Source of the DNA: Acaryochloris marina MBIC11017
Lineage (GTDB): Bacteria > Cyanobacteriota > Cyanobacteriia > Thermosynechococcales > Thermosynechococcaceae
Length of the DNA: 32,000 bases
Direction of reading: 5' to 3'
Assembly (NCBI RefSeq): GCF_000018105.1
Contig: NC_009926.1
Span: forward strand, 342,162 to 374,161
The number at the start of each line of letters is the position of its first letter. The first letter of the stretch is position 1. Shown piece after piece: positions 12,918-31,360 of this stretch. A program made the position numbers and the translations under genes. The notes under the pieces were generated by a model that was not told the origin of the DNA, ran no database searches, and saw only the letters and a list, made by a program, of their open reading frames with translations.

Positions 12918-13016
12918 TCCCAAGGGAGCGGGTGGGTGTTGACCACCGCATTGGAAACGCAATATACCAGGCAGTACCCACTAATTGTTTGAATGTTCAT
13001 TCCCTAGCAATGACTG

Positions 13017-13055: not shown

Positions 13056-13065
13056 ATTCCCAGTA

Positions 13066-13926: not shown

Positions 13927-14034
13927 CGCTATTTCCTCAATTGATTGATAGGTATGAAGTTGAGAATCTGGCTAGGTAATACAGATTCCGCGCGGATACT
14001 GAAAGTAGTGAGAGTTCAATCTTCCGTAGCTTTG

Positions 14035-16066: not shown

Positions 16067-16384
16067 TTACTCAGGAGCGGAACTTGAGGACTCCTTCACC
16101 CGAGCCTGATCCTGGGTTGCAGCCTGGGTAACTTCGGGGATATCCCAAGAGGTTTTTAAGTACAGGCCGGGGATGTCCTTGAATGCTGTCTGAAGTCGAT
16201 TCATACAATCTCTTGCTCTTTCCTCAGATATAAATGCATTGCATCTTGTGACTTCAAAGGCAAAGACAACTTGAGGGGAAGATTTTTGGAAGGGGAGCCA
16301 ATAATAGCTTCGGGTGCCCAGACCTCCTCCTGTTGGGAGGATGTGATTTGCGCTTGATTGAAAAGTGTGAATCATGAGAATCAC
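16067..16384 (-). CDS. hypothetical protein (105 aa)
   Basis: ORF with GAGGTG 7 nt upstream of its ATG. No family recognised. Confidence 0.5.
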   Translation of the reverse strand: MILMIHTFQSSANHILPTGGGLGTRSYYWLPFQKSSPQVVFAFEVTRCNAFISEERARDCMNRLQTAFKDIPGLYLKTSWDIPEVTQAATQDQARVKESSSSAPE

Positions 16385-16634: not shown

Positions 16635-16648
16635 AATAATATGCCACC
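16635..16648 (-). promoter_or_regulatory. backbone box copy (AATAATATGCCACC on +)
   Basis: Matches the 14-nt box repeated 13 times. It lies just downstream of the 16674 stop and 250 nt upstream of ATG 16384. Confidence 0.45.
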
Positions 16649-16673
16649 CTCCCTTGAAATAGGCAAGTAGGAA

Positions 16674-17189
16674 TTACAGATCCCCCCGAATCTCTTCAAT
16701 GACACCATCCCGCAGTACCATCTCGACCTGCATCTTGCGAATAAAGTGGTCGCCTTGCTTGACGTAAAAGTAGCTATCTACCTGGCCTTGTTCAACTTCC
16801 TCGCCCAGCTCCAATGTTCCGACCTTCTCCAGTTGCTGCAAGACTTGAGCTTTTTGCTGGAGCAGTTCGTTTTTGCGTTTTTCAGCTTGCACCTGGATGC
16901 CTTGGATCTGGTTCTGGGTTTCGGCAATAGTGCGGCCCTCTCCCCCAGTACTCTGAATGGTGTGCTGGCTCAGTTCACTCACCATCTGCTGGACTTGGGT
17001 ATCGAGCTGAGCTAATTGCTCATCCAACTGATCAACTTGGGACTGGAGAAGTTGCTGTGCCTCGTCTTTCCATATAGGAGTGACGATGGCCTTGATGGTG
17101 ATCGGACGATTGAGTAAGAGCTGATTAGATGATGGAGACTCAACCCAAAGTTCTGGTTTGGGCTGGGTGGGACGGTCTTGAATAAGCAT
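16674..17189 (-). CDS. coiled-coil protein, tentatively YlqD-like
   Basis: AAGGAG RBS. Central Q/E-rich heptad region and a C-terminal beta-like tail (YFYVKQGDHFIRKMQVEMVLRDGVIEEIRGDL) that resembles the YlqD family as I remember it. Confidence 0.55.
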   Translation of the reverse strand: MLIQDRPTQPKPELWVESPSSNQLLLNRPITIKAIVTPIWKDEAQQLLQSQVDQLDEQLAQLDTQVQQMVSELSQHTIQSTGGEGRTIAETQNQIQGIQVQAEKRKNELLQQKAQVLQQLEKVGTLELGEEVEQGQVDSYFYVKQGDHFIRKMQVEMVLRDGVIEEIRGDL

Positions 17190-17210
17190 GATTGCTCTCC
17201 TTAATTAGAT

Positions 17211-17417
17211 GGTTTTGAAGGTGACGGATAATATGCCACCGTTAATTTGCTAGTTGGCGGTGACGGATAATGTGCCACCAGCTTTATTCGCTCCAGTCGG
17301 AGGTGCCAGGTAATGTGCCACCGCTCTGATTTGCTTAGTTGGAAGTGACCGATAATCTGCCACCTTCCGAATTTGGCTGTGCGGTGACGGGTAATATGCC
17401 ACTCTTGTTATTTGCCG
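17211..17417 (-). repeat. array of five 39-43-bp direct repeats (iterons), each containing the backbone box
   Basis: The units start at about 17211, 17251, 17293, 17336 and 17379. The shared core is GGTGAC(G/C)G(A/G)TAAT(A/G/C)TGCCAC(C/T) followed by ..(A/T)TTTG(C/G)C. The box copies start at 17227, 17266, 17309, 17351 and 17390. Confidence 0.85.
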
Positions 17418-17655
17418 ATGATGGGGCGATGGTCCCCCGCAGCCACCAGCCACCAGCCCCAGCGATGAGGGCGACTAGCACGACGAGCCAACCCCAATAG
17501 CTGAAATCGCCAAGCACGGCCATGCGGTAGTCATGTTCTCTTTGTTGTTTGGCTGCTTTGCGGATGGCTTCTTGGTCTGCGAGGATCATGGCCCGTTCAC
17601 GGATGGCGATGGCCTCTTTCGACTGCATCGCCCACACCTGAAATTGGGTGTTCAT
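17335..17655 (-). CDS. small membrane protein (one TM), C-terminal tail reads into the iteron array
   Basis: ATG 17655 follows the upstream stop by 23 nt. The alternative GTG at 17709 overlaps the upstream gene. TM segment FSYWGWLVVLVALIAGAGGWW. The last ~27 codons overlap repeat units, so the true 3' extent is uncertain. Confidence 0.4.
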   Translation of the reverse strand: MNTQFQVWAMQSKEAIAIRERAMILADQEAIRKAAKQQREHDYRMAVLGDFSYWGWLVVLVALIAGAGGWWLRGTIAPSSANNKSGILPVTAQPNSEGGRLSVTSN

Positions 17656-17678
17656 CAGCTCCAACAAGATTTGACGTT

Positions 17679-18314
17679 CTAAACTTCCCGGACCTCGGCC
17701 TCCAAACACTTTCCCGGCACCGTCTCGCCTTCAAGAGCTTCTTGGGCTTCCTCTTTCGCCCATTCTTCGGCAAACATCTTCTTCAAGTCACGACTCAGCT
17801 GCTGCATATGGTACTTATGCGCGGCTTGCACCACCCGCTCTGAAGTCTTCCGGGCATTCTTGACGACTCGGCGGCAGGTTCGCAGTGAGTCAGCTTTTAA
17901 AGCTAACTTCATATCCTCGTCAACCTCCTCCACATCATCAATGGTTACTTCCTCCTCGGGTTCTTCGGTGCCCTGTAATTCAGCTTTGACCGCATCAACG
18001 GGGTCCATGCTTTCCTCAGAAACCCGCTCACAGACCAATGTGAACAGCGGGTGGTACAGGTCATTGCCCGTCTCAATCCCCTCAGCAGTAATGGCCTTGT
18101 GGATAGGCTTAAGGTCAACTTGATGGGTGTCAGCGGTGTAGATGCACCAGGCATGGGTGTAGTTATCAGCCGATTTCTCCTCTCTCAGCTTCACGACACC
18201 TTGCAGAGTTTCCAGGTCATAGCCGTCTTCACTCATTCCGCAGGCTCTCAGTAGATGACCGACTTGCTTGTCATCCATGCCGAGGGTTTGCATTAGATCA
18301 TTCATAATAGTCAT
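17679..18314 (-). CDS. hypothetical acidic protein (211 aa)
   Basis: ATG 18314 (MTIMNDLMQ...) has GGAGA about 10 nt upstream. The 72-codon extension to 18527 in the ORF track reads through three box copies and has junk-like composition. Confidence 0.55.
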   Translation of the reverse strand: MTIMNDLMQTLGMDDKQVGHLLRACGMSEDGYDLETLQGVVKLREEKSADNYTHAWCIYTADTHQVDLKPIHKAITAEGIETGNDLYHPLFTLVCERVSEESMDPVDAVKAELQGTEEPEEEVTIDDVEEVDEDMKLALKADSLRTCRRVVKNARKTSERVVQAAHKYHMQQLSRDLKKMFAEEWAKEEAQEALEGETVPGKCLEAEVREV

Positions 18315-18342
18315 TCGTTTATTTCTCCAAATGTTGAACTGT

Positions 18343-18480
18343 GGGAATGTACCACCGGGGGTTTTGAGAGTGGTGGAGTGAGGGGACATGGAAATATGCC
18401 CCCTCTTCCTGCTGAGGTCAGTCGTCCATAACGAACTCCTCGAATCTCGTCTGTGAATCATCCCAAGGGAATATGCCACC
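18343..18480 (-). promoter_or_regulatory. three backbone-box copies upstream of the 211-aa gene
   Basis: GGGAATGTACCACC (18343-18356), GGAAATATGCCCCC (18390-18403) and GGGAATATGCCACC (18467-18480). They lie between the stop at 18520 and ATG 18314. Confidence 0.5.
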
Positions 18481-18519
18481 AGCATTTTTTCGGTACTGGC
18501 ATGAGCCTTCCTAATCGAA

Positions 18520-18957
18520 TTAGTCATCCTCCTTCAACCCTGCATAGATACTTATTGCAGGGCTATCAGAATCTACCGCCGGGGGTTCCTCTTCTTCTCT
18601 TGGAGGTTCATAAGGCTCAGGGGGCGGCTGTACAGTCTCAGGTTCTACGACCATTGGGGCGGCTGTGGATGGAGCTGGTGAGGGTGGCGTCAATTCAGGA
18701 GAATCCCCATCAGCAGTAACCATAATCAATGCCAGTTCGTAAAACGTCTCAACCTGATCTCTTGAAATCAGGATGGCCTTGCGAACCTCAGCTACGGAAT
18801 TGGTTCGAAGGGCAACAACCACTGGCTTAAAGACGGCATAGAGAATCGTCACGCACTTAGTCGCAAACGTTCCGTAGAAGTGTTGCTTGGATGCTTGCAA
18901 GATTTCCTTATACTCTGCATTAGGGTATACAGCATCTACTTTTAATCGCTCAGGCAT
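18520..18957 (-). CDS. candidate ParR-like partition adaptor (145 aa)
   Basis: The start overlaps the ParM-like stop (TAATG) and has an AAGGAGG RBS. It has a short structured N-terminal half and a Pro/Glu-rich disordered tail (PPSPAPSTAAPMVVEPETVQPPPEPYEPPREEEEPP). The assignment rests on position and architecture only. Confidence 0.4.
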   Translation of the reverse strand: MPERLKVDAVYPNAEYKEILQASKQHFYGTFATKCVTILYAVFKPVVVALRTNSVAEVRKAILISRDQVETFYELALIMVTADGDSPELTPPSPAPSTAAPMVVEPETVQPPPEPYEPPREEEEPPAVDSDSPAISIYAGLKEDD

Positions 18958-20051
18958 TACACAACCTCCTTAACTGGAGCAGGTTGCAGTTGCATCACAG
19001 GGGCTGCATGTTGTCGCCAAATCAGATATAGATCGATAAATCTCTGCTGCTGAGACAACGACAATCGAAGTTGAGCAAATGTTGTCTTGATTTCCCTGCG
19101 AACCGGAGCGAGGATATCAGCCTTGACCTGGCATAAATCAGCCAAATAGTCTCCCCAGAAAAAGGAGCCTCCCCCGCCGACATACACACGCTTAGAATTC
19201 ATGAAGTCGGTATCCGCTGCCAAGTCATCACTCAGGTCAGTCCAAACTAAATCTTTGGCTTCTTTGAGTGCAGCTAGCTTAATCGGCTTCTCCTCTTCAG
19301 TGAGCATTGCCGATAATCCCCCTTCGCCCCAGGCCATCGCCTCCTCATACAGCAGCTTCGCCCCCGTCAATTCATTGCTGAAGGCAAACGGGAAGTTCCG
19401 CAAAATCTCAATGGTGCCGTACCCCGTCCAGGTATAAGCATTCGGCACCACATTCGCCTGCTCATCCTTGAGGTTGATAATCGTCACATCTCTGTGACCA
19501 AACATCAGGATTGAACAGGGGTACACGTTGGCGTAGCTGGCAAATCCTGCACCCTCTGGATGGACCTGGACCCGAACGGGATTACATGAAACTGTGTCAA
19601 TCCCATACTGGAAACTGCGGATATGCTTGAAAATCAGCTCCTCAGTTTCTCGGAAGTAGGGGGCTTCATTTGAAGGCAGCATCAGATCAATCTCAACATC
19701 CAGGGGGCTATCGATTTCGCTGATGTACTGACCCACAATCGACAGCACCTTAGCCACGGCATGGTGCTTTTTGATCCGATTCACCTTGGTCCGACGTACA
19801 GCCCCCTCGGCATACTCACCCACAATCCAATGGGCACCATCAAATGACAGGTGTGACCCTTGCCGATTGTTCACTAAGTTCAAAGATTCGTAATAGCTTG
19901 CCGTGACTTTGCGGATGGCACTCGATTGCAAAATCAAGTCCTCAACACCCACCTTGCCAGGGTGAGTGGTTTGGACAAGAACTTTGTTACCGGATGCCCC
20001 AGTATCGATTCCAAATTTGGCGATAGCGTTCATGGATTTTCGCTTCTCCAT
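18957..20051 (-). CDS. actin-like plasmid segregation ATPase (ParM/Alp family)
   Basis: Actin-fold motifs: phosphate-1 FGIDTGASGNKV, connect VHPEGAG, adenosine VYVGGGGSFFW. The phosphate-2 region is atypical (ILMFGHRDVTI). Start at ATG 20051, or at ATG 20033 with GGAG 12 nt upstream. The 20138 start in the ORF track reads through the iterons. Confidence 0.7.
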   Translation of the reverse strand: MEKRKSMNAIAKFGIDTGASGNKVLVQTTHPGKVGVEDLILQSSAIRKVTASYYESLNLVNNRQGSHLSFDGAHWIVGEYAEGAVRRTKVNRIKKHHAVAKVLSIVGQYISEIDSPLDVEIDLMLPSNEAPYFRETEELIFKHIRSFQYGIDTVSCNPVRVQVHPEGAGFASYANVYPCSILMFGHRDVTIINLKDEQANVVPNAYTWTGYGTIEILRNFPFAFSNELTGAKLLYEEAMAWGEGGLSAMLTEEEKPIKLAALKEAKDLVWTDLSDDLAADTDFMNSKRVYVGGGGSFFWGDYLADLCQVKADILAPVRREIKTTFAQLRLSLSQQQRFIDLYLIWRQHAAPVMQLQPAPVKEVV

Positions 20052-20060
20052 AATCAACGA

Positions 20061-20074
20061 AATAATGTACCGCC
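20061..20074 (-). promoter_or_regulatory. backbone box copy (AATAATGTACCGCC on +) directly upstream of the ParM-like gene
   Basis: 9 nt from ATG 20051 and 27 nt from ATG 20033. Read in the gene direction it is GGCGGTACATTATT, which contains the -10-like TACATT. Confidence 0.5.
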
Positions 20075-20095
20075 ACCCCAAATCACGATTCACAC

Positions 20096-20171
20096 AAATC
20101 CCCCTAAATCCCCACAAATCCCCTTGCAACTCCCCCAAATCCCCCTCGAAATAGGTGAGACTTGGGGGAAT
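20096..20171 (-). repeat. phased AAATCCCC(C) iterons, candidate parC-like centromere/operator
   Basis: Direct copies start at 20096, 20106, 20116 and 20137 (spacing 10, 10 and 21 bp). An inverted copy GGGGGAAT lies at 20164-20171. All are upstream of the ParM-like gene. Confidence 0.55.
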
Positions 20172-20328
20172 CCAGAGAATGACCTGAGAACTTGCAGGAA
20201 AGCTTGGAGTGGTGCTACTTTGAGGGCAGATTCAAGAGGTTTTGGAGGGGTCGCTGAGGCTCCCACACCCATCACCACTCCGAGGCACCGGAACGGAAAT
20301 TTACCCAATCGGACTGACCCTAAATTTT

Positions 20329-20427
20329 CGTAGTACATTCAGAAACATTTTTGTACTATCACGTAGTACTTCCGTAGTTGTTTTGTAACTTCACTTTGTA
20401 GTACACCGTCATATCTTTGTAGTTTTC
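20329..20427. other. candidate oriT region: AT-rich block with repeated (T)TTGTAGTAC / CGTAGTAC motifs
   Basis: CGTAGTACA 20329-20337, TTGTACTA 20351-20358 (inverted), CGTAGTACT 20362-20370, CGTAGTTG 20373-20380, TTGTAGTACA 20396-20405 and TTTGTAGTTTTC 20416-20427. The block lies in the divergent intergenic region immediately upstream of the relaxase gene. Confidence 0.35.
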
Positions 20428-20543
20428 ATGAGAACGATCACTTCTGTGGTCGATGGAATCGCTTTTTAAAAATTTCACAGCAGGTATTCCCATGCTTAAA
20501 ACTTTCCTGAAACATCTGAACGACTAAGCCAGGGGCCGATGTC

Positions 20544-23500
20544 ATGAAGACGATGCGGACCATCTATGGAGAAATGATTGACTATTACGATGAGGATGAA
20601 TCTCTCGTAGATGCTCCAGAGCGCTATTACAGCGAATCCGAGGTTATCACTGACATCGACCGCATGAGTACCGCTGTCTGGGTCGGCTCCAACGCGATTG
20701 TTCAAAAGTTAGGCACCTACGTTAAACGAGAGGACTTCAAAGCCCTCAGTCGAGGGTTTCTACCTGAAGCCTTAAAAAGTGTCGCGGGTGGTGCAGTCCA
20801 ACGGATTCGGGGCAAGAAACCCAACGAGGAAGACAAAGAACGCCATGCCCATGACGTGGTGCTGTCTGCTCCCAAAAGTGTGTCGATGGCCCTGCACTTG
20901 GAAGGGGATAACCGGATCTTTGATGCCCACATGGAGGCAGTCCTCGAAACGTTTGAGTTGCTTGAACGGGAGTATGCCCAGACCCGAATTCAAGTGAATG
21001 GGGTGCGCTCTGTCGTCGATACGGGCAATATGATTGCGGCGTTGATGCCCCATCACACTTCACGAGATGGAGATATGCAGCTCCACACCCATATGCTGAT
21101 CATGAATGGCACACAGGGGCCAGATGGTCGGTGGCGATCCCTCTCTCATGAAAAGCTGGCTCAGGCCAAGTGGATCGGCAGCTTCTATCGTCAGAAGTTA
21201 GCTGAGAAGGTCCAGCGACTGGGCTATCGCATCTACCAAACCAAGGATGCATTTGAGCTAGTGGGCTACGACCGTTCTGATGTCGAAGTCTTCAGCAAGC
21301 GTCATCGGGCCATCGTCAAAGCGGTTCGGGATGAAGGGCTAGAAGTTACTCCTGAGAACAAGAAGCTGAAGGTACTCCCCACTCGCAAGGCTAAGCGGGG
21401 TGTCGGTAAAAAGCTTGAAATCATCCAAGACCATTGGCGTGAAGAAGCCCGCTCTCAAGGGGTGGGCCATCCAGTATTGGCTGAACCTTTGGCCGTCCTA
21501 CCTGACCCAGGTAGAGCCAGGTATGAAGTTGAGAGTGCTATTCGCCATTATGCAGAGTGGTCCTCAATCTTTGAGAAGGATGACATCTATGCCTATGTCT
21601 TCAAGACCCTCAAGCGACAGGGCATGGCTATGGAACAGGTGGATGAGGCCATCAAGCAAAGCAAGGAACTGATCCCCGTTGACCGTGGATTCACCACCGT
21701 CACTGCCGTTGAAGAAGAAGCCCAGATCCATCAGCGCTGGATGGCAGGCCAAGGTCAAGCTCAGCCAATGGTCGCTCATCCTTCACTTGCTGGGATTTCG
21801 GTCAAGCTGAACGAAGACCAGGCCAAGACCATACTCAACACCCTCACTAGCACTGACCATTATCAAATCTGGCAAGGCTTTCCAGGGGTGGGCAAGTCCA
21901 GAACCTTGGGGGTACTCAAGACTTTACTCAATGGATCCGGTTTCACGATTCGGGGGTTCAGCCCTACCATCCCAGCCGCAAAGAAGCTCCAAGATGAGCT
22001 AGGCATCACGACCAACACCGTTGAGCATCTAGTTCTCCATCAAGTTGATGATAGCCCTAACCAAGTCTGGCTGATTGATGAAGCGGGCATGATGAGCCGA
22101 CGACAGATGAAGGTGATTCTGGAAAAGGCAGAGGCAGTCAAGGCACAAGTCATCTTCGTAGGGGATGCGGGCCAGAACTCTTCAATTGAAGCGGGCAATC
22201 CCTTCAAGTTTATGCAGGCCAATGGAGCCACCACTCACCGAATTGAGGAGATTATCAGGCAAAAAGTTGATGTCCAAAAGCAGGCCGTTGAACTGATTGC
22301 CAGAGGTAGAGGAATTGCAGCACTAGAACTCCTTGATGCTAATGGATATGTGATTGAGTCGGGCTGTAAAGCGGAAATGGCTCAAGCCGCAGCAGATCAG
22401 TACCTCGCTCTCCCCCTCAAAGAACAAGAGGAAACCCTGATTATCGCTGGTACCAATGAGGAACGACTCGATACGGAGCAAGCCATTCGTAGAGGGGAGA
22501 AACAAGCAGGACGGCTAGGGGAATCCAGCAAGATTGTTCAGCTCAAGTCCCGCAACTTGAGTATCGAGCAAAAGCGTCGGGTGGATTGGTATCGCAAAGG
22601 GGATTACGTCCGATTACTTCAAACCTCCCATACCGCATCCATCAAGCGAGGAGAACTCTACAAGGTGGAAAAACGCGAAGGGGATGAGCTGGTGGTATCT
22701 TCCTTTGGCGGTCGCCTCTATCGATTCAAACCCGCGAAATACAAACTAAAGGAGGTCTACAGTGCCCATAAATTTGATGTGGCCGTTGGGGACAAGTTGC
22801 GGTGGACGACAACGATCAAAGAAAACAACTGGATTAACGGTCAGCAGCTCACGGTCACCGCCCTTGATGGCTTGAACATGAAAGTCAGAGACCATGAGGG
22901 ACGTTCCCATGATGTGCCCCTCACGCAACCGCTTGCCTTGGAATATGACCGGGTGTGGACTTCCTACCGCTCCCAGAGTGGCAGCAAGAAACGGACGATT
23001 GTCATCACCACCAATGACCGGACCTCCAGCCGGGAGCCGTTCCTCGTCGATATTTCTCGGCAAGAACATGAATTGACTGTCTATACCGAGAGCCTGAACA
23101 AACTCAGGAATCGGGTCGCCAAATCCAATGCCCAAAAAAGTGCTTTAGATCTAATCGAGGGAACCTATGGAAACCAACGAACAACAACAGCAGATCATCA
23201 ACGAGCTTCGAGTCCAGTTAGCCCCACTCACGGACGCGATCACCATCTTGACCAATCAAGTCGAAGAGGTCCAAGCCCAGAACCAACACATCCTAGACGA
23301 GAACAGAGAACTCAAGTCCCAAGTCAGGGAGCGGATCAACACCATTCCAATGGAAGTCAAAGCCGTTCTCAACCTGTTCATCCAGGAATTCAAGGAGGCG
23401 ATGGCATCCAAGAAACCCTCGGATATGAGCGAGTCGATCAAGGAACTCGCCAAGGCAATGGACAACTTAAGGTTGAAAATCGAGGATACCAGCGTCTTGC

Positions 23501-26249
23501 AGTTGACGATGAGCGACAAGGTATTGGAGGCCGCAGAGGAGATCATGCAGATCAAGGACAAGCTCCCCCGACACGCACCACCCAAGACGGTCGCTCAACA
23601 GAATGGGGGGCAACCTCCTCAGACATAGCTAATTGGGTGATGCATTGGTCTGAGGAGAATGAGCTTGCAGCAAGCGGGTTGGAGGATCACTTGCTAGCCC
23701 TTGATAAGGATATAGAGTCACTCACTCAAAGTCTAGAACCATATTCCTTTGAAGGTTTGGAAGAACTGGCTGAGATTGTTGAAAATGCAGATAAACAACA
23801 AGATCTCAGCCAGAACCTCACTTATATTGCCCAAACTATAGATAACTTTAACCAGATAATCACCCAAAGTCTTGATTCTAGACCTTTTATAGGCTTGGAA
23901 GAATTGGCTGAGATTGTTGAAAATGCAGATAAACAACAAGAACTCAGCCAAAACCTTAGTTATATTTCCCGATCTATAGATAACTTTGACTACACTATCG
24001 AGCAATTCCTAAGCCAGCAACGAATCAAGACCATTGCTGATGCCGTAGCAGAATGGCGAACGGGTCAGGAGCTGGCAAATGCCGTCACTGAAATGGTGGA
24101 TGTCCTGACTCAGGGCACTGAAGGGCTAGACCGGGCAATCATCCGACTCCAAGCGGGGATTGAGACCACCCAATCTCTGGATGTCCAATTCCCCGCAATG
24201 GTTGAGTTAGTCGATGCCGTTCAAGATTGGCAAACTGAGGTGGAAGTTTCTGCGGTCATAGGCGAGGTGCAGGAGCTGGTTGAGTCAATCACGGTGCCTC
24301 AATTCCCTGGAATGAATGACCTGGCTCAGGATGTCCATGACCTCAATGAAGAACAAGCCTTAGCTGAGAGTGGCTTGGTTGAGCAGTTAGCTGAGTTGAC
24401 CACTCAGATCAATACCTTAGTTGAACCCCAGCAAGCTCAGTTTGAGGGCATGGCACAGCTAGCTGAGGTGGTTACTGAACTCCAGCAAGGTCAATCCCTC
24501 GCTCAGGTGCAGCCCCAGCTCCAGGCCATCACCCAGCAGATTGAAGCGTTTAACGCCAAGCAACCCACTTATTCTTTTGCCAAGATTAAGGAGCTGGCCG
24601 ATACCGTCAGTGAGTGGAGGGCACATGAATCCATCACTCAACACATTGGCGCACTCAATGATCTGACCGTTCGCGCTCAACGGAGTCTGAAGACCTTCCC
24701 AGCTATGCTGCAATTGGCTAAATCCGTGAAGGCAATGCGCTCTGTGGATGCACTCATGAATGGGCCAGTCGCAGACCAGATCAAGGAAGTCGCCCAACAG
24801 TTAACGGACAAGGGGATGAGTATCACTCCTAAGCCAAAGACCATTGACGATCAGGTGTTCTGGAAGCCGGACTATACCGGGGTAGAACGACCTGACCACA
24901 TTGACGAGAAGCATTGGAATGAATGGGTGGCAAGCTGCGCCCATCCTGATGTGATTGCTGCTCGGCTCCAATCCATTGCTGATGATCAGGTGATTGATCG
25001 GTTGCTCGGAGCCAAGATTGAAGACATCGCCACTCGCAGACGGGATGGGTCGTTCAAGACGGTTCGCAGCCAGTATCACATTGAGCCGATCCGAGCCTTG
25101 ATTAATGATCGGTCGCATCCTGAAGTGTTGAGCTATCAAGAGCTAGCTGAAGGGGGAGGCTGGTGGGCTGATGCTGGAGTGGATCCGCTGTCCTTTGAAG
25201 AACTTGGACCCAATGAGGAACCTACACTGAGTCTGTATGGCACCTTCAAGCCTGATACTCCCCGCATCGACGTAGACAAAACTCGCAGAGCTAGGGCTAA
25301 AGACTCCAATGCCCCAACCAAATATCGCAAGTATGAGAATCCATTGGGAACCAAGCGCGAACTCTTTGAGCGAGACATGGCCTTCCAACCCGTCCCAAAT
25401 CATATCGCTGAGCGGATCTTTGATAAGTATGGTGTTGTGCAAACGGATGAGGAACGGACCAAGGGATTCTGGTACACGGTCTACAAGCATCCTGAGATTC
25501 CCATCTACCGGACTGAAGGAGACAAGAAAGATGCGGCATTAGTCTCTCAAGGAAGAGTCGTCATTGGTGGTCAGGGGGTCAACATCGGCTATCGGGCCAA
25601 GAACCAGCACGATGAAAAGCTCGAAAGACGAGTACTGCATCCTCATCTAGACGTGTTTGCGGTTCCAGGCAGAGAGTTCAGGTATGCCCATGACTGGGAT
25701 TCTGAGCAGTCCACGGTCTGGAACGTGCGCCGTGAAATGGTCAGAGAAGCTGAACTCATTGAAGAAAGAGACTGCAAGACATGGAGAATTCCTTGGGATT
25801 CTGAACAAGGGAAAGGCGTCGATGACCTGATCGCTAATCATGGCCCCATCGCCTTTGAGCGGGCTGACAAGAATGCCTATCCGATGGAGCGGGAAATCAC
25901 GATGCACTATCGGGGCCAGTACACCCAGATTAAGAAGCGATTGAATCGGCACTTTGGATGCGCGGTGCACGATATTCCCATTTACCTAGAAGCGATGAAG
26001 GATGGGGACGAGATGGATGGCATTCGGGTCCTATGGGAGTCTTCCACTGCCCGGTCCTTCCAGCATTACCATGACAAGCAGCACTATATCGAGGGCATCA
26101 TCAAGCTCTCGGATGCCTATCGTAGACTCGTCAGAAAAGACGGTGACCCCAAGGCCATGCAAATCCTCGTCAACAGACTAAAAAGGCCCCGACCCATTAT
26201 CAAGGTCGAGGCCAGAAGTCGGAATATAAAACGAGGCTATGGACGTTAG
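20544..26249 (+). CDS. MOBF-type relaxase / RecD-like helicase fused through a repeat-rich linker to a C-terminal TOPRIM (primase-like, DUF3854-like) domain
   Basis: Relaxase: Tyr pairs IDYY...ERYY and His triad HHTSRDGDMQLHTHMLIMN. Helicase: P-loop GFPGVGKS (21876-21899), Walker B LIDEAGMM (22071-22094) and VGDAGQ. TOPRIM: TEGDKKDAA (from 25512), HDWDSE (25689-25706) and KGVDDL. A single frame is open for 1901 codons. Confidence 0.85.
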   Translation: MKTMRTIYGEMIDYYDEDESLVDAPERYYSESEVITDIDRMSTAVWVGSNAIVQKLGTYVKREDFKALSRGFLPEALKSVAGGAVQRIRGKKPNEEDKERHAHDVVLSAPKSVSMALHLEGDNRIFDAHMEAVLETFELLEREYAQTRIQVNGVRSVVDTGNMIAALMPHHTSRDGDMQLHTHMLIMNGTQGPDGRWRSLSHEKLAQAKWIGSFYRQKLAEKVQRLGYRIYQTKDAFELVGYDRSDVEVFSKRHRAIVKAVRDEGLEVTPENKKLKVLPTRKAKRGVGKKLEIIQDHWREEARSQGVGHPVLAEPLAVLPDPGRARYEVESAIRHYAEWSSIFEKDDIYAYVFKTLKRQGMAMEQVDEAIKQSKELIPVDRGFTTVTAVEEEAQIHQRWMAGQGQAQPMVAHPSLAGISVKLNEDQAKTILNTLTSTDHYQIWQGFPGVGKSRTLGVLKTLLNGSGFTIRGFSPTIPAAKKLQDELGITTNTVEHLVLHQVDDSPNQVWLIDEAGMMSRRQMKVILEKAEAVKAQVIFVGDAGQNSSIEAGNPFKFMQANGATTHRIEEIIRQKVDVQKQAVELIARGRGIAALELLDANGYVIESGCKAEMAQAAADQYLALPLKEQEETLIIAGTNEERLDTEQAIRRGEKQAGRLGESSKIVQLKSRNLSIEQKRRVDWYRKGDYVRLLQTSHTASIKRGELYKVEKREGDELVVSSFGGRLYRFKPAKYKLKEVYSAHKFDVAVGDKLRWTTTIKENNWINGQQLTVTALDGLNMKVRDHEGRSHDVPLTQPLALEYDRVWTSYRSQSGSKKRTIVITTNDRTSSREPFLVDISRQEHELTVYTESLNKLRNRVAKSNAQKSALDLIEGTYGNQRTTTADHQRASSPVSPTHGRDHHLDQSSRRGPSPEPTHPRREQRTQVPSQGADQHHSNGSQSRSQPVHPGIQGGDGIQETLGYERVDQGTRQGNGQLKVENRGYQRLAVDDERQGIGGRRGDHADQGQAPPTRTTQDGRSTEWGATSSDIANWVMHWSEENELAASGLEDHLLALDKDIESLTQSLEPYSFEGLEELAEIVENADKQQDLSQNLTYIAQTIDNFNQIITQSLDSRPFIGLEELAEIVENADKQQELSQNLSYISRSIDNFDYTIEQFLSQQRIKTIADAVAEWRTGQELANAVTEMVDVLTQGTEGLDRAIIRLQAGIETTQSLDVQFPAMVELVDAVQDWQTEVEVSAVIGEVQELVESITVPQFPGMNDLAQDVHDLNEEQALAESGLVEQLAELTTQINTLVEPQQAQFEGMAQLAEVVTELQQGQSLAQVQPQLQAITQQIEAFNAKQPTYSFAKIKELADTVSEWRAHESITQHIGALNDLTVRAQRSLKTFPAMLQLAKSVKAMRSVDALMNGPVADQIKEVAQQLTDKGMSITPKPKTIDDQVFWKPDYTGVERPDHIDEKHWNEWVASCAHPDVIAARLQSIADDQVIDRLLGAKIEDIATRRRDGSFKTVRSQYHIEPIRALINDRSHPEVLSYQELAEGGGWWADAGVDPLSFEELGPNEEPTLSLYGTFKPDTPRIDVDKTRRARAKDSNAPTKYRKYENPLGTKRELFERDMAFQPVPNHIAERIFDKYGVVQTDEERTKGFWYTVYKHPEIPIYRTEGDKKDAALVSQGRVVIGGQGVNIGYRAKNQHDEKLERRVLHPHLDVFAVPGREFRYAHDWDSEQSTVWNVRREMVREAELIEERDCKTWRIPWDSEQGKGVDDLIANHGPIAFERADKNAYPMEREITMHYRGQYTQIKKRLNRHFGCAVHDIPIYLEAMKDGDEMDGIRVLWESSTARSFQHYHDKQHYIEGIIKLSDAYRRLVRKDGDPKAMQILVNRLKRPRPIIKVEARSRNIKRGYGR
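23167..23628 (+). CDS. 153-aa coiled-coil protein encoded in the +1 frame inside the relaxase ORF
   Basis: GAGG at 23157-23160 lies 6 nt before the ATG, and an in-frame TAA lies at 23152-23154. Coding-type codon-position bias is in this frame rather than frame 0. The product is an amphipathic helical sequence. Confidence 0.55.
   Translation: METNEQQQQIINELRVQLAPLTDAITILTNQVEEVQAQNQHILDENRELKSQVRERINTIPMEVKAVLNLFIQEFKEAMASKKPSDMSESIKELAKAMDNLRLKIEDTSVLQLTMSDKVLEAAEEIMQIKDKLPRHAPPKTVAQQNGGQPPQT
23754..24029 (+). repeat. 138-bp (46-codon) tandem duplication inside the relaxase linker
   Basis: 23754-23891 and 23892-24029 are near-identical over the first ~70 nt (gg.ttggaagaa.tggctgagattgttgaaaatgcagataaacaacaaga.ctcagcca.aacct). 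They encode GLEELAEIVENADKQQ.LSQNL.YI...IDNF twice. Further degenerate copies follow. Confidence 0.8.
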
Positions 26250-26467
26250 TCTACACGACGGGAGTTAATCACCGTACCACCACTAGAACTAATCCAATCA
26301 GAACCCGGCATGGGAGGTGGCCCTGGAATAATCTCGGTGAGTCTCATTCCTGATCTATCTTCAATCTCTACGCGACTGCGTTGTTGAGGCTTGGGATCAC
26401 CGGGTAGCCGCTGACTCCAGGGATCATTAAATGAATTGCCGATTGGATCGTTATACATATCTGACAT
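26246..26467 (-). CDS. small Pro/Gly-rich hypothetical protein (73 aa)
   Basis: ATG 26467 (MSDMYNDPIG...) has AAGGAG upstream and a box copy 43 nt upstream. The longer 26611 start overlaps the preceding gene. Confidence 0.45.
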   Translation of the reverse strand: MSDMYNDPIGNSFNDPWSQRLPGDPKPQQRSRVEIEDRSGMRLTEIIPGPPPMPGSDWISSSGGTVINSRRVD

Positions 26468-26510
26468 GGGATTTCTCCTTGATTTGATTAACAACGTGAA
26501 ACTGATTCGA

Positions 26511-26524
26511 GAGAATATGCCACC
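26511..26524 (-). promoter_or_regulatory. backbone box copy (GAGAATATGCCACC on +)
   Basis: 43 nt upstream of ATG 26467, in the 61-nt gap between the 731-aa gene stop (26529) and ATG 26467. Confidence 0.45.
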
Positions 26525-26528
26525 CCCT

Positions 26529-28724
26529 TTATCGGGACATGGAAACTTCTCGTTTGGGCTGTTCTTTCTTCTCCACGGGGGGACGGGCAAGGTTCTTTTT
26601 AATCTTGGCAATGAGCTTGCTAGAATCTAGTCCTTTCTCTCGCCTCCGATGAATCGTATCTTTCTGTTCTTGGGTAAATCCAGCGAACTCATCCTGGACT
26701 TCTGCCGTAGGATGCTTGGACTGGGAAGACGCTACTTGTTGATTCTCAGGCTCAGTGGGCTGTTCTTTATCATTGGGCTTGGGAGCTTCCGCCTCGGTCT
26801 TCTGGCCTTTAGTTTCACTCTGCTGCTGCGCATCCTTGGGGATATCAGCCTCAGCCTTGATATCCTTTCCAGAAAGTCCATATCGATCTGGAATCGCAAT
26901 ACCATTTTGAATCCTAAGAATCGTGCGAGTGCCTACCTTAATCGTCAATGTCCCTTTGAATTTCTCTGGATTCCTCAGTGCCTCTCGAATCATCCGAGAC
27001 TGTTCTAAATTAACGGAACTGCGATTATGATCGATTATCCCGTCATCATTTAGTCGAAATATCTCTTTCTGATTTAAAAACACTCGCATATTGCCAATTT
27101 CAATATTGCGACTTAGCTTCTCAACAATATCCTCGTTGAGCATGCGGAGTGGGTCAAGGTCTTCAGATTCCGAGGCTTTCGCTTTCGGTGCTTCCGCTTC
27201 AGGTGCTTGAGAGGGTTCAGCCCTTTCTGGGTCTGAGGAGTTGCGGACCACAGCCTTCGCTTCCTCCTCACTCATACCCTCGTCTTGACCCTGCATCACG
27301 ACCAGCTCGTCATAGTATTCCTGCAACTGCGGATCTTCGCTGATGTATTCTTGAGTGTCAGCATAGGTTAGCTCTTCGTCCAGGGCTTTAGACAATAACT
27401 CCGCATATTGGTCTTGGCTTGTGGATTCAGTCTGTACCTCTGCCCCCTGCTCAAAGGCATCAAAGTTAGCCTCAGTGGTGACGAGTTTCTGAACGTCTTC
27501 TAGGTCTACCCCATTAACAGCAGCTTGAGCCACGACCTTCTGATCCAGCTCACTCAATAACGTTGGATTCTCACCGAGGCGAGACTGAATATCCTCCCAG
27601 GTCAAATCTGGATTCTTCTCAAATTCACCCAGTAGTTGAGAATATTGCTGTTGGGCATCCGTTGATAGTTCCACCGATGGATTCACGACAGAAGCATTCA
27701 CTTCCAATACTGTTTGAGCTTCAGGCTCCTGGGTCAGCTCCTGATTAACCTCTGGGGTGGGGTTATCTAGTTTGTATTGCGCCTCCACTGACTTTGCTGT
27801 CTCAGCTAGATAAACAGAGGTATCTTGAAGCTTCGCGTCAGCCATCTGAGATACATTTGGTCCCTGGGAGATAATCGCGGTTGCTTCATCCGGGCCTTTC
27901 CCTGCTTTGAGCGCTTGGTAGAAGACTTGCTTGTCATAGTCAGCTCCTAAGTCGGGCTGATTCTGGAGAGTCTCCTGAATGCGCTCATAGGTGAGATTGG
28001 GGTCATTCTGTTGCTCAGATAGGATCTTTACATATTCATCTCGTCGCTCCATATCGCGCTCTGTGGGGATGGAGGCTTGGTTCTGTGCTTCAGCCATTGT
28101 TGCTTGTCTCCTTTGTACGGTTTCCATTGCACTACGAACGTTCTGCTGCACTTGCTCTGGCAGCTTGCTCAAGGTCTCTTCAAACCAATCCTTGGCCCGG
28201 TTGATGTAGTGGTTGGTCATCCTCCACATATGAACCACTGGACGAGCCACCACTGTAGGAATGCCCTGTCTGGCATAGCTAATGGCTAGCTTGCTCGTGT
28301 CCACGATGCCTTTCCCGATCATCGTCGGGGCGGCAAACCCACTCAAGGGCCGTGCCCAGGCATCTGTCTTTGCCAACATGTCTGCGGTTCTCACATTCGC
28401 CCAGGCATTGAAAGCACTCTGCCTCCCCCATCCAGGCTGTATCTGACCCGCTATCTCAGCAAAGTTCTTGGCGATCTGATCCGCTGCAACGCCATGTATC
28501 CCTGAGTGCATCAGATGAGTGGCCTGACCCACTACCCCCGCCACGGCAGGGCCAACGATGGGAGCATGAGTCGCGGCCACCGCAGCAGCAGGAGGCAGGG
28601 CGGCAAACTGGATCAGTTTTTTAGCCACTCGCATAGTGGGAGCAGCCTGGAAAAAGAGTTGTTCTTCTTCCCGTAGTTCCCGATACTTTGCACTGATGAA
28701 ATTCTGAGATTCAAGTTTTTCCAT
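26529..28724 (-). CDS. large uncharacterised protein (731 aa) in the coupling-protein operon
   Basis: GGAGAA RBS. The N-terminal third is Gly/Ala-rich and hydrophobic. The centre has three ~65-aa repeats (QY..LL.....P.LT.E.IQ..L...P.L....D..V). The C-terminal domain is followed by a Lys/Glu/Pro-rich tail. No family recognised. Confidence 0.7.
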   Translation of the reverse strand: MEKLESQNFISAKYRELREEEQLFFQAAPTMRVAKKLIQFAALPPAAAVAATHAPIVGPAVAGVVGQATHLMHSGIHGVAADQIAKNFAEIAGQIQPGWGRQSAFNAWANVRTADMLAKTDAWARPLSGFAAPTMIGKGIVDTSKLAISYARQGIPTVVARPVVHMWRMTNHYINRAKDWFEETLSKLPEQVQQNVRSAMETVQRRQATMAEAQNQASIPTERDMERRDEYVKILSEQQNDPNLTYERIQETLQNQPDLGADYDKQVFYQALKAGKGPDEATAIISQGPNVSQMADAKLQDTSVYLAETAKSVEAQYKLDNPTPEVNQELTQEPEAQTVLEVNASVVNPSVELSTDAQQQYSQLLGEFEKNPDLTWEDIQSRLGENPTLLSELDQKVVAQAAVNGVDLEDVQKLVTTEANFDAFEQGAEVQTESTSQDQYAELLSKALDEELTYADTQEYISEDPQLQEYYDELVVMQGQDEGMSEEEAKAVVRNSSDPERAEPSQAPEAEAPKAKASESEDLDPLRMLNEDIVEKLSRNIEIGNMRVFLNQKEIFRLNDDGIIDHNRSSVNLEQSRMIREALRNPEKFKGTLTIKVGTRTILRIQNGIAIPDRYGLSGKDIKAEADIPKDAQQQSETKGQKTEAEAPKPNDKEQPTEPENQQVASSQSKHPTAEVQDEFAGFTQEQKDTIHRRREKGLDSSKLIAKIKKNLARPPVEKKEQPKREVSMSR

Positions 28725-28764
28725 TGTTCAAGTTCTCCATAGTTAGAGTCCTGATTTGTTCCGA

Positions 28765-28778
28765 GGTAATGTACCGCT
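28765..28778 (-). promoter_or_regulatory. backbone box copy (GGTAATGTACCGCT on +)
   Basis: 40 nt upstream of ATG 28724. It overlaps the stop of the 118-aa gene. Confidence 0.45.
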
Positions 28779-29133
28779 ACCGTCCAAACCCCCGATTTTG
28801 GCCTCGGTTCCGATTCTGGGTGAGCTTGTGGCCGTGGGTTTCCACCGCGACTTTGAGTTGGGCACTCTTCACATACCGCTCCGCCATCTTGGTTGGGTCT
28901 TGCACTTTCTCGGCATAGTCGCTCATCCGTAGCTTGGTCTTAATCACATCCGTGGGGGTGTTATTCCGTATCTCCTTCTTCGCCAGTTCCATTGCCTGTT
29001 CAGCAGTCTCGATCTTGACCGCCACTCGCGGCTTGCGGAGGGCGACGGCATTGATGATGACGCTGTTGGTGGCATTCACGGCCTGCTGGCCGATTTGCAA
29101 CGCTTCTCTAAATTGCTGTTCTTCGCTACTCAT
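28777..29133 (-). CDS. small hypothetical protein (118 aa) with a basic RG-rich tail
   Basis: The ATG overlaps the coupling-protein stop (ATGA). Helical body and the tail NRNRGQNRGFGR. No family recognised. Confidence 0.6.
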   Translation of the reverse strand: MSSEEQQFREALQIGQQAVNATNSVIINAVALRKPRVAVKIETAEQAMELAKKEIRNNTPTDVIKTKLRMSDYAEKVQDPTKMAERYVKSAQLKVAVETHGHKLTQNRNRGQNRGFGR

Positions 29134-30857
29134 GCGGCTTTCTCCTCTTGTTGCTTCAATTTGTGGGATTCAACTTCTTGGGTAGAGGGCAGCAAGGCAT
29201 CCGCAGACACCATGCGGTCGGACATGATTTGTTCTGGAGAATCTAACACCCGCTCTTGGGCTATCCGCACCATCTGCTTATGGACATGGCTGTTGTACAT
29301 CCGCTCACATTCGGTGAACCGCTGCATGTCCGTGCCATTCCGCTTCTTCAAGTTGAAGCGCATCCGAATGGGCCGATCATCCATGCCGGGGTTGGTGCAG
29401 ATAAATTCCCCTTTCTTCAATCGCTTGATATCTGAAGCGGTAATCAGCCGCTTCTTCTTCTCCTGTTCATTGCGGGAGCGGCTGTTGCCCATCTTCCCGT
29501 AGCTGCGAGATTTGGAATGGTAGTGCTTGGTGTACTCCCCCAAGTCCGCACTCAGGTCTTCTCGGACTTTGTAGCTCCCACTCTTGAATATGAATTGGGT
29601 GGAGGTGTTATCAAAGATGGACTCTGAGGTCTCCGACTGATATTTAATCTTGGGTTGGCTATAGCTCTGCATGGACACAAAGGAATAGAACCCATAGCTC
29701 CGATCCAAGGACACCACTTCTTCAAAACTCGGCAGCATCAGTCGGGCGAATTCATCTAGGAACACACCAAAAGGCCGATCCCGTTCCGTATCCTCATTCA
29801 AGTTGCGCTGAATTAAAAGGTGAATGGCAACAGCGACTAATGGGGCCGTAGCTTTCTTGGCTTGTCCATCCAACTCAAAGAAGATGATTTGCTTACCCGG
29901 TAGGTCCAAAGGAATGGTGGATTGGGTGGGTTCGCGCCCATCAATGGACAGACAGGGGATGGTCTGCCGATTGACCATTGGTAAGAGATAGTTGATGCCA
30001 CTCGCTAATATGCCGCCAGCGGTATCTTGGGTGCCCGTCACGCTCATCAGGCCCACGAGCTGTTGCCTCACCCACATGCCTAAATCGCTATCTACCTTGA
30101 ATGCGCCTTCTTGATCGGCCATTTGAATCCGCTCTGCGATACCCGGCAGGCCCATCAAAGCCCATACCATCGGCAAGTCGGAATAGTCGGCCCGCTTCGC
30201 CATCATCAACAGGGCTTGCAGGAAGTACTCCGCATGATTGTCGAAGAAGGGATGCTTGCCTGAAAGATTGACGATCACGTTATCGGACAAGGTTGAGGCG
30301 ATGGACCGCGCTCTCAATGAGTCATCAGCATCTTGCATAAATTTTAGGTAGTCAAAGCCATGACTGTATCGCTTGCCGGGGGCAAAGCAGTAGCACTCAT
30401 ATGGATCTGGTTGCTTGAGGGCAAAGGGGATGAATTTCTTCTTGAGAGTACCCTTCACATCAAAGACAATCAGGGTGTGCTCCTGGCGTATAGCATCTGC
30501 CAAGGCTAGTTCAATCACCGTAGCGGTCTTACCCTTACCAGACCCACCCACGATGGTGACGAGGGGCTGAAGGTCCGGGAGGATCAGGGGGTCATCGCTG
30601 CCCAGGCGAAGGGCAATTTCATCCCGTTTTCGGTCTCTGATTTGCTTGAGTCCCAGCATCTTAGCTCGATGCTGCTCCCGTCTCGTGGCCCACCGGGCAT
30701 CATCGGGTTCGCGTCTCGTCTCATCCTCAAACCACCACAGGGCAATTACGATCAGGGCCAATAAACCCGTCAACCAGGGGAGAGGGCCACTGAAAAGTGG
30801 GGACAGGTCAACCCCTTCAGATTGGGGTTGAGGAGGCTGTTCGGTATGCTGCGACAT
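29130..30857 (-). CDS. type IV coupling protein (VirD4/TraG/TrwB family ATPase)
   Basis: AAGGAGG RBS. N-terminal TM LPWLTGLLALIVIALWWF. Walker A GGSGKGKT. Walker B-like FGVFLDEFARL. Size and layout are typical of T4CPs. Confidence 0.9.
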   Translation of the reverse strand: MSQHTEQPPQPQSEGVDLSPLFSGPLPWLTGLLALIVIALWWFEDETRREPDDARWATRREQHRAKMLGLKQIRDRKRDEIALRLGSDDPLILPDLQPLVTIVGGSGKGKTATVIELALADAIRQEHTLIVFDVKGTLKKKFIPFALKQPDPYECYCFAPGKRYSHGFDYLKFMQDADDSLRARSIASTLSDNVIVNLSGKHPFFDNHAEYFLQALLMMAKRADYSDLPMVWALMGLPGIAERIQMADQEGAFKVDSDLGMWVRQQLVGLMSVTGTQDTAGGILASGINYLLPMVNRQTIPCLSIDGREPTQSTIPLDLPGKQIIFFELDGQAKKATAPLVAVAIHLLIQRNLNEDTERDRPFGVFLDEFARLMLPSFEEVVSLDRSYGFYSFVSMQSYSQPKIKYQSETSESIFDNTSTQFIFKSGSYKVREDLSADLGEYTKHYHSKSRSYGKMGNSRSRNEQEKKKRLITASDIKRLKKGEFICTNPGMDDRPIRMRFNLKKRNGTDMQRFTECERMYNSHVHKQMVRIAQERVLDSPEQIMSDRMVSADALLPSTQEVESHKLKQQEEKAA

Positions 30858-30963
30858 TACTCACCTCCTTTGCTTTCAGCGATGGGAGTGGAGTAACCTA
30901 ACTGCACGAGCAGGGGTACTGCCAAAAATCTGATGTTGGTCATGGCGGTCGAAATTATCTACG

Positions 30964-30977
30964 AGATAACGTACCGC
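30964..30977 (-). promoter_or_regulatory. backbone box copy (GATAACGTACCGCC on +)
   Basis: 106 nt upstream of the coupling-protein ATG (30857). Confidence 0.45.
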
Positions 30978-31030
30978 CAGTTGAATTTTGAGTGGGCAGA
31001 AGCCACACCTCTATGAAAAGATATGCCAGA

Positions 31031-31360
31031 TTAACAACAATTCTTACCAGGGAGACAACAAGAGGCGATATCAGGGTGATTATCACAGCAATCATTCAGA
31101 AGAAAAGAAATCAGTCCACCAAGACATGCGAAGTCCGCTTTGTAGACAATATGTCGTGACTGACGTTCAGACGAAACAAGCCCTGCATTCTCAAGTTTGG
31201 ACAGATGAAATGACATTCGAGAAGAAGTGACCTCAACAGCCTTGCCAATCTCACCAGCAGCGGCACCCGCCTCGCCACACTGTACTAAGTATCGAATTAT
31301 GTCGAGCCGAGTTTCTTGAGATAGGGCGCTTATCGCTTTAAGCGCTTCAACCTGTTTCAT
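31031..31360 (-). CDS. ArsR/SmtB-family metalloregulator with a Cys-rich C-terminus
   Basis: Winged-HTH pattern ETRLDIIRYL...GEIGKAVEVTSSRMSFHLSKLENAGLVSSERQSRHIVY. C-terminal DCCDNHPDIASCCLPGKNCC. Confidence 0.85.
   Translation of the reverse strand: MKQVEALKAISALSQETRLDIIRYLVQCGEAGAAAGEIGKAVEVTSSRMSFHLSKLENAGLVSSERQSRHIVYKADFACLGGLISFLLNDCCDNHPDIASCCLPGKNCC

Follow-up and report, generated by a model that had tools for sequence, protein, structure and literature searches.

A recurring 14-nucleotide box as the probable promoter core of MobF-type megaplasmid backbones in Acaryochloris

A stretch of 32,000 nucleotides (nt) from Acaryochloris marina MBIC11017 (contig NC_009926.1, positions 342,162 to 374,161), referred to here as the window, contains part of a plasmid backbone in which a 14-nt box, GGYGGYAYATTAYC, recurs upstream of ylqD, a ParM-like gene, the gene for a coupling protein (T4CP) and several genes for small proteins. 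The box is probably the core of a dedicated promoter class that belongs to the MobF-type megaplasmid backbones of Acaryochloris, a reading in which promoter activity is deduced from sequence and to which we assign a probability of about 0.65. An earlier note on this DNA had described the box as a shared element defining a backbone regulon, had likened it to the KorA/KorB operators and had offered a specialized promoter class as the alternative. The shared element stands, as a set of co-oriented promoters conserved in related plasmids, but the KorA/KorB-type repressor operator is not supported, and the alternative fits the evidence better. In the literature searched, neither the box motif nor its lineage variants were described, and no work was found on how transcription is controlled in conjugative or mobilizable plasmids of cyanobacteria. 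Acaryochloris is exceptionally rich in megaplasmids and sigma factors, and the box is a compact predictor of where the partition and transfer modules have their promoters. It offers a handle for mapping the plasmid regulon and allows one to ask whether plasmid-borne sigma factors serve the plasmid itself.

Numbering throughout is that of the whole window, with the coordinates of the boxes given on the plus strand and the genes they serve located on the minus strand. Read in gene direction, the window copies follow GG[T/C]GG[C/T]A[T/C]ATT[A/C][T/C][C/T]. The degenerate pattern RRWAATRTRCCRCC was searched on both strands, with the chance level taken from shuffled sequence. It has five exact matches in the window (0.00 in the shuffles) and 14 matches with at most one mismatch (0.36 in the shuffles), all of which are on the plus strand. 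A weight matrix was built from 13 window copies and used with cut-offs of 14 bits and 16 bits; it gave no match of at least 14 bits on the opposite strand or within 1-16.6 kb, a scan that is circular in that the matrix was trained on the window's own copies. All 13 copies listed in the earlier note were recovered, the last of them beginning at 30965 rather than 30964. Its statement that the copies occupy a single strand is borne out, since all 14 strong copies are on the plus strand, and so is its statement that the accessory half of the window is free of them. The "weaker copy" that it placed at 31017 scores 3.0 bits on the matrix and is not a box.

The box is found in seven promoter regions of the window and in their orthologues in relatives, and in each case the box reads in the minus-strand direction of the gene. 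Five copies (17227-17240, 17266-17279, 17309-17322, 17351-17364 and 17390-17403) form an array upstream of ylqD, the proximal one being 37 nt from the ATG at 17189. Three copies (18343-18356, 18390-18403 and 18467-18480) precede the gene for a protein of 211 amino acids (aa), the proximal one being 28 nt from the ATG at 18314. A single box at 20061-20074 is located upstream of the ParM-like/ParR-like operon, 27 or 9 nt from the start of the ParM-like gene, with a GGAG sequence between it and the ATG at 20033, the start at the distance of 27 nt. Single boxes also precede a 73-aa open reading frame (ORF; box at 26511-26524, 43 nt upstream), the 731-aa gene (28765-28778, 40 nt upstream of the ATG at 28724) and the T4CP gene (30965-30978, ~107 nt from the ATG at 30857). 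The first of these begins 5 nt past the stop codon of the 731-aa gene, and the second has its first two bases in common with the TAG that ends the 118-aa gene. The remaining copy, at 16635-16648, is an orphan located ~250 nt upstream of the 105-aa gene; in relatives it is followed by a second box and a multi-gene operon, whereas in the window this operon has been deleted except for its last gene. The distances re-derived here agree within 1 nt with those first reported. In the window and in the related backbones L001-L003, the proximal copies lie 25-43 nt before the ATG with ribosome-binding sites of the GGAG type in between.

Two further sequences resemble the box and are found inside genes. 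A 14-mer within the T4CP ORF, GGCGGCATATTAGC in gene direction (30004-30017, minus strand), scores 16.5 bits and was absent from the earlier list. It is not conserved in L001, and probably either arose by chance or is an internal promoter of recent origin. The other, GGCGGTAGATTCTG (18567-18580), scores 11.4 bits, falls within the 3' end of the 145-aa gene and is kept in relatives, a conservation that is probably due to coding as the sequence specifies the conserved C-terminal peptide VDSxS.

The earlier note had held that the box should be conserved in homologous plasmids, and it is indeed present at the orthologous promoters of related backbones. In the four related backbones the core GGYGGYAYATT is confined to the gene strand, where it occupies orthologous sites before ylqD, the 211-aa gene, parM, the gene for the 731-aa homologue and the T4CP gene. 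An independent test comes from the complete CP064924 plasmid (309,759 bp), which was scanned with the matrix trained on the window only. This plasmid has 13 matches of at least 14 bits where 3.1 are expected, and 10 of at least 16 bits where ~1 is expected. The bias in strand and position proposed from the window recurs in it, as all 13 matches are on the gene strand and 11 of the 13 lie within ~110 nt upstream of a co-oriented gene. Eight are in the backbone module, and three further matches are located 88-108 nt upstream of other minus-strand genes. The two that are intragenic are probably chance matches. A gene for a VanY-like peptidoglycan hydrolase, which adjoins a putative mating-pore cluster in CP064924, has AGCGGTACATTCTT 25 nt before its start, a sequence that scores just below 14 bits.

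When orthologous promoters of related plasmids are compared, no block other than the box is conserved, and some intergenic regions of L001 (54-81 bp) hold little besides the box and a ribosome-binding site. The box is common to the parM promoters of the window and pMB01, although the two ParM proteins are only 37% identical. The T4CP promoters likewise keep the box despite an identity of 37% between the T4CPs of the window and of L001-L003, whose adjoining backbone DNA is ~80% identical to that of the window; the identity to the T4CP of pMB03 is 47%. Such divergence amid closely similar backbone DNA indicates that the transfer module has been exchanged between lineages and that the promoter box was retained.

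The composition of the box points to a promoter element. In a footprint alignment of 42 distinct sites, drawn from the window and five related plasmids, information is confined to the 14 columns of the box, with G1, G2, G4, G5, A7, A9, T10 and T11 each contributing 1.4-1.8 bits. The flanks stay below ~0.7 bits save for a weak A/T-rich patch 5-10 nt upstream. Positions 6-11 of the box (YAYATT) match a -10 hexamer in which A(-11) and T(-7) are invariant among the 13 window copies and are among the strongest columns of the alignment (~1.8 bits). Positions 1-5 form a clamp, GGYGG, at -17 to -13, with G at -14 and -13 invariant in the window copies and TG at -15/-14 in 9 of the 13. Since the clamp reaches -17, it is longer than the classical TGn extension. 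The box shows the features of an extended -10 promoter, namely the A(-11)/T(-7) hexamer, a G-rich extension and a co-oriented gene shortly downstream with a ribosome-binding site between. A sigma-70 scan of the gene strand of the backbone intergenic regions found no canonical -35/-10 pair, which leaves the box as the only promoter-like element available there. The absence of a -35 element is expected for extended -10 promoters.

The strict co-orientation with genes and the location 25-45 nt before start codons would also suit an RNA element, a protein-binding or processing site in a 5' leader that is transcribed from promoters further upstream. Such an element is highly improbable, given that there is no conserved promoter or other block upstream of the box, that no compensatory pairing is seen and the arms of the repeat described below do not covary, and that Rfam has no matching family anywhere in the window. 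Moreover, the conserved letters are those of a -10 hexamer, and the variant box of plasmid pREC4 (see below) has a proper -35 element at 18 nt.

If the box is a promoter core, RNA polymerase would start ~4 nt past the box (~7 nt past the hexamer), giving leaders of 20-40 nt that hold the ribosome-binding sites. Recognition of the clamp would fall to region 3 of a sigma factor, either an alternative or a plasmid-borne one, or to a small accessory factor, and the partition, YlqD-operon and transfer genes would thereby be tied into one regulon. It is possible that the reader of the clamp is a sigma factor, whether a host alternative factor or one encoded by the plasmid, or else a small protein that overlaps the -10 element and acts as a repressor or an activator. 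Promoters of this type would be short, portable and possibly orthogonal, which could make them of use in engineering these organisms.

The closest described analogue of the box is the SigJ J-Box of Nostoc punctiforme (GGGaAtacT), a highly conserved extended -10 element with a G trio that is assigned to sigma domain 3 and with a weak, AT-rich -35 region (PMC6495340). Both elements are cyanobacterial, both define a regulon, and in both a G-rich block abuts a hexamer with near-invariant A and T. The two also resemble each other in having a weak, AT-rich upstream region and no canonical -35 element. The consensus sequences differ, however (GGG-aAtacT for the J-Box and GGYGG-YAYATT for the box, in which GG and a Y abut the hexamer), so that the box matches the J-Box in architecture alone. 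The J-Box is found at motility genes whereas the box is found at plasmid backbone genes, and tandem arrays, which the box has, are not described for the J-Box. A related box on plasmid pREC3 (CTGGGTAAnGT) is closer to the J-Box than the box of the window is.

More distant backbones with the same gene order possess a different recurring box at the same places. In pMB03 (L004) it is aaaaaa-AC[A/C]GTATAT[T/C]C, AACMGTATATTC, with the clamp AACMG, and precedes ylqD, parM, the T4CP gene, a 65-aa gene and the gene for the 731-aa homologue. In pREC3 (L021) it is aATTCTGGGTA[A/G]nGTT, aATTCTGGGTAAnGTT, with the clamp TCTGG. Four of its five copies, including those of the T4CP gene and parM, are on one strand (969, 3999, 5839 and 14913, plus strand), and one is on the opposite strand before the relaxase operon (14586, minus strand). 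In pREC4 (L022) it is TGCCTATGTT, with the clamp TTGCC and the hexamer TATGTT; its four copies (2732 and 14929 on the plus strand, 12396 and 14041 on the minus strand) include those of parM and the relaxase gene. Three of these four have TTGGCA 18 nt upstream of the hexamer and so amount to a near-canonical sigma-70 promoter. A pREC3-like box, GCGGGTAATGTT, lies upstream of the T4CP gene of an 8-kb contig of an Acaryochloris metagenome-assembled genome, the only match obtained from T4CP scans of genome collections for relatives outside Acaryochloris. These sister boxes indicate that a TAnnnT-type hexamer is the constant part of the element, whereas the 5-nt clamp, from -17 to -13, varies. Since the boxes of pREC3 and pREC4 lie on both strands, orientation follows the gene and not the DNA strand, and the single orientation seen in the window arises because every gene there that has a box is encoded on the minus strand. 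That no box precedes the relaxase gene, as the earlier note stated, is correct for the window, where the best candidate, GAGGGCAGATTCAA at 20222, reaches 2.5 bits on the matrix, but it does not hold for the family, as pREC3 and pREC4 have their own boxes before the relaxase operon, on the opposite strand.

The variable clamp raises the question of which factor reads it. Within ~8-12 kb of every related backbone examined there is a gene for a 268-277-aa protein of the sigma-70 family with regions 1.2, 2, 3 and 4, and in many cases it belongs to an AbrB-HU-sigma module. A module of AbrB-like, HU and sigma-70 (~270 aa) genes recurs near Acaryochloris backbones (L009, 6887-8734; L018, 21939-23784; L004, 7244-9453; L022, 26369-27809), and region 3.0 of the plasmid sigma factors is diverged, as exemplified by ERHWNVA, ACHWQTG and HYHWDTV. 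In pREC3 the AbrB-HU-sigma module is ~1.3 kb to the left of the point that matches position 1 of the window, and by synteny a sigma module is expected just to the left of that position in the plasmid studied here. Sigma factors are numerous in the genus, with 33 homologues in A. marina S15 (PMC11119718). A plasmid-encoded sigma factor with a regulon is known from SigN of pBS32 in B. subtilis (PMC6751061). As with that system, Acaryochloris has large plasmids with sigma-70-family genes of their own that could transcribe plasmid genes from a distinctive promoter; unlike that system, the neighboring plasmid sigma factors of Acaryochloris do not covary with the clamp, and no clear covariation of sigma factor and clamp was seen among the plasmids compared.

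A more far-reaching idea, and a rather doubtful one, is that each backbone lineage has a private promoter "dialect" with its own 5-nt clamp (GGYGG, AACMG, TCTGG or TTGCC), which would be read by a plasmid-borne sigma-70 paralogue with a diverged region 3.0 or by a new small protein associated with RNA polymerase. Transcription of partition and transfer genes would then be orthogonal and under plasmid control, and the arrays might act as sinks or copy-number sensors. If lineage-specific factors did read the clamp, plasmids within one cell would be insulated from each other at the level of the promoter.

Several observations weigh against the box being a promoter core. C occupies -12 in 9 of the 13 window copies (CATATT), which is unusual for a sigma-70-type hexamer. 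The four Gs of the clamp are as conserved as the hexamer and go beyond the usual TGn, which could equally point to a DNA-binding protein. Three to five promoters at a spacing of ~42 bp would be unusual, and such an arrangement resembles protein-binding arrays. As for a sigma factor reading the clamp, the sigma factors of pMB03 (AACMG) and S15 unnamed8 (GGCGG) are 93-94% identical despite the different clamps, and those of the GGCGG plasmids are only 53-62% identical to one another.

The conservation of the clamp Gs together with the multiple phased copies at two promoters could instead reflect an operator, in which a plasmid-encoded global repressor binds GGYGGYAYATTAYC over the -10 element and shuts all backbone operons, with the arrays at ylqD and the 211-aa gene serving for cooperative binding. 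A lineage-specific clamp is likewise what co-evolution with a plasmid protein would produce. Operators repeated across the backbone are well known in conjugative plasmids; examples are KorA/KorB of the IncP plasmid RK2, ArdK/StbA of IncW plasmids such as R388, which has repeated operators, and omega of inc18 plasmids, with its heptads on pSM19035. The box resembles these global regulons in being a short motif that recurs at maintenance and transfer promoters, with several copies at some of them. The known operators, however, are palindromes or contiguous short repeats that are accompanied by an identified gene for a plasmid repressor, whereas the box is asymmetric and contains the -10 element itself. 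Single copies have neither a palindromic nor a direct-repeat partner, and at six promoters there is only one copy. Recurrence at many promoters is therefore the one trait of KorA/KorB-type operators that the box shares; a palindrome or direct repeat and a cognate repressor gene were not found in the window.

An operator is also difficult to reconcile with the distribution of the box. The same box is present on plasmids that coexist in one cell (S15 unnamed8 and unnamed10; pMB01, pMB03 and pMB05), which sets it apart from the global regulons above, and it is therefore not a partition or incompatibility site specific to one plasmid. The array is reduced to one copy in NIES-2412, and its second arm does not covary with the first. 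A candidate repressor was sought among the small backbone proteins. Pfam and NCBIfam returned nothing for the 73-, 105-, 118-, 124-, 145- and 211-aa products, and a sequence search of the PDB returned only 4dci, an uncharacterized structure of YlqD, and, with the 118-aa protein, designed helical repeats. No helix-turn-helix (HTH), ribbon-helix-helix (RHH) or ParB domain, nor any other DNA-binding domain, was recognized in the 73-, 105-, 118-, 124-, 145-, 171- and 211-aa products by sequence and fold searches, although a novel fold could have escaped them. The AlphaFold model of the 211-aa protein (predicted local distance difference test, pLDDT, 74.5) had no fold match, and neither it nor the model of the 145-aa protein matched a DNA-binding fold. 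The sole HTH protein of the window, an ArsR-type protein encoded at 31031-31360, is accessory and missing from related backbones. An operator for a global repressor thus seems unlikely, and the KorA/KorB analogy is not supported in view of the asymmetry of the box, the lack of covariation between arms, the sharing of the box by coexisting plasmids, the lack of an HTH or RHH candidate among the small backbone proteins tested and the retention of the hexamer across lineages.

The box is repeated in tandem at two places. The ylqD array (17227-17403) comprises five units with a period of 39-43 nt, each of which has GCAAAT upstream of the box and G(T/G)CAC(C/T) downstream. Among relatives the copy number differs, with five in the window, four in S15 unnamed8 and the DRR194264 contig, three in pMB01 and S15 unnamed10, and one in NIES-2412 and pMB05. 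The promoter of the 211-aa gene has one to three units, which in the relatives L010 and L014 are clean tandem repeats of 45 nt. The arrays may be tandem duplications of a promoter unit that would raise or buffer initiation without being essential.

Each of the five ~42-bp units of the ylqD array includes an imperfect inverted repeat, GGTGRC-N9-GYCACC, and the ParM-like/ParR-like operon is 1.5 kb away, features that would accord with a centromere or with replication iterons. The arrays would then be comparable to sopC of F (43-bp units) or to parC, and the partition or Rep protein that binds them would use the single copies as secondary sites. The second arm of the repeat (GTCACC) is not kept when the first arm changes to GGCGGT, however, so that the inverted repeat is lost, and this lack of covariation is evidence against a palindromic operator or an RNA hairpin formed by GGTGRC-N9-GYCACC, both of which were rejected on that ground. 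Whereas an essential multi-copy array and a ParB or Rep partner would be looked for in a sopC-like or iteron system, the array ranges from one to five copies among relatives (1, 3, 4 or 5), and the window yielded no gene for a Rep or ParB protein. Inspection of the array revealed no AT-rich or DnaA-box region, and the single copies lie at fixed, promoter-like distances from genes. In addition, the parM locus has separate iterons of its own, described next. There is consequently very little to recommend a centromere or replication iterons as the function of the box.

Five direct repeats of ~10 nt, GGGGATTT in gene direction (AAATCCCCnn on the plus strand), are located at 20093-20146 on the minus strand, directly upstream of the parM box. 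Repeats of the GGGGATTT type are also present upstream of parM in NIES-2412, and in other plasmids the same place is occupied by GGGAACTYNNY (seven copies in S15 unnamed8) or CAAACGACCGA (pMB01), so that the repeats, 10-11 bp long, differ from plasmid to plasmid. Variation in these repeats is matched by variation in the N-terminal segment of the 145-aa family, in which a helical core and an acidic C-terminal peptide are conserved. It is likely, judging from this pattern, that the 20093-20146 repeats are the parC centromere and that the 145-aa protein is the ParR adaptor of a type II partition system. The model of the 145-aa protein is of low confidence (63.6) and consists of two long helices and a disordered tail; a fold search with it gave no match, and the RHH fold of a ParR-like protein was not confirmed. 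As in the type II parMRC systems of R1 and pSK41, a gene for an actin-like ATPase is followed by a small adaptor gene, and short direct iterons abut the promoter of the operon. The box at 20061-20074 takes the place of the promoter that is embedded in parC in those systems. Unlike parC, the box is not an iteron, as it occurs once at parM and is identical between plasmids, and it is found at unrelated operons as well; the ParM match of the window is also below the Pfam threshold. The box is thus not parC, and the 20093-20146 repeats have the properties of parC instead.

Several known elements were compared with the box and rejected. A sigma-54 promoter (GG-N10-GC; TGGCAC-N5-TTGC) was considered as some copies have TGGCAC, but no GC or TTGC is present at the required spacing, and the GGCGGTAC variants lack TGGCAC. 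To our knowledge, RpoN is not known in cyanobacteria. The boxes for NtcA (GTA-N8-TAC) and cyanobacterial LexA misfit by inspection in both spacing and half-sites. A Chi-like site, GCTGGTGG, is seen at no more than two copies, and the boxes keep strictly to intergenic DNA.

The window itself is a mosaic of Acaryochloris plasmid DNA. Its first part, positions 1-14369, has 98.7% identity to plasmid pREC3 from A. marina MBIC10699 (AP026078.1) and is followed by a gene for an IS256/Mutator transposase (14594-15844). From ~16 kb onward the DNA is that of a backbone related, with ~77-85% identity, to those of plasmids in A. marina S15 and in Acaryochloris 'Moss Beach'. The HIP1 sequence (GCGATCGC), which occurs five times in the window, marks the DNA as cyanobacterial. 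The backbone genes on the minus strand are the 105-aa gene (16067-16384), which is the remnant of the deleted operon, ylqD (PF11068; 16674-17189), an ORF for a 124-aa membrane protein (17335-17709), the 211-aa gene (17679-18314), the 145-aa ParR-like gene (18520-18957), the ParM-like gene (actin-like ParM/ALP; 18957-20033), the 73-aa ORF (26246-26467), the 731-aa gene (26529-28724), the 118-aa gene (28777-29133) and the gene for the TraG/VirD4-type T4CP (29130-30857). The 73-aa ORF has no homologue in L001 and is thus unverified as a gene, and the 731-aa product is 50% identical to its L001 orthologue. When relatives were sought outside the genus, homologues of the 211-aa and 145-aa families proved to be confined to Acaryochloris.

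An ORF of 28 codons, MTNIRFLAVPLLVQLGYSTPIAESKGGE (30858-30944), begins 21 nt past the T4CP box, and its TAATG end overlaps the annotated start of the T4CP gene. It may encode a coupled leader peptide, or possibly the T4CP start has been mis-set. On the plus strand, the gene for the 1901-aa MobF/TrwC relaxase (20544-26249) encodes a C-terminal DUF3854 domain (residues 1642-1768) besides the TrwC and helicase domains. A segment of ~90 nt between parM and this gene (ggtgctactttgagggcagattcaagagg...cacccatcaccactccgagg, window 20190-20290) is nearly unchanged in the relatives examined, pMB03 included. Several GTAGTAC/TTTGTAGT repeats come next (20320-20425), still ahead of the relaxase gene. The segment and the repeats together are a candidate oriT with sites for accessory proteins.

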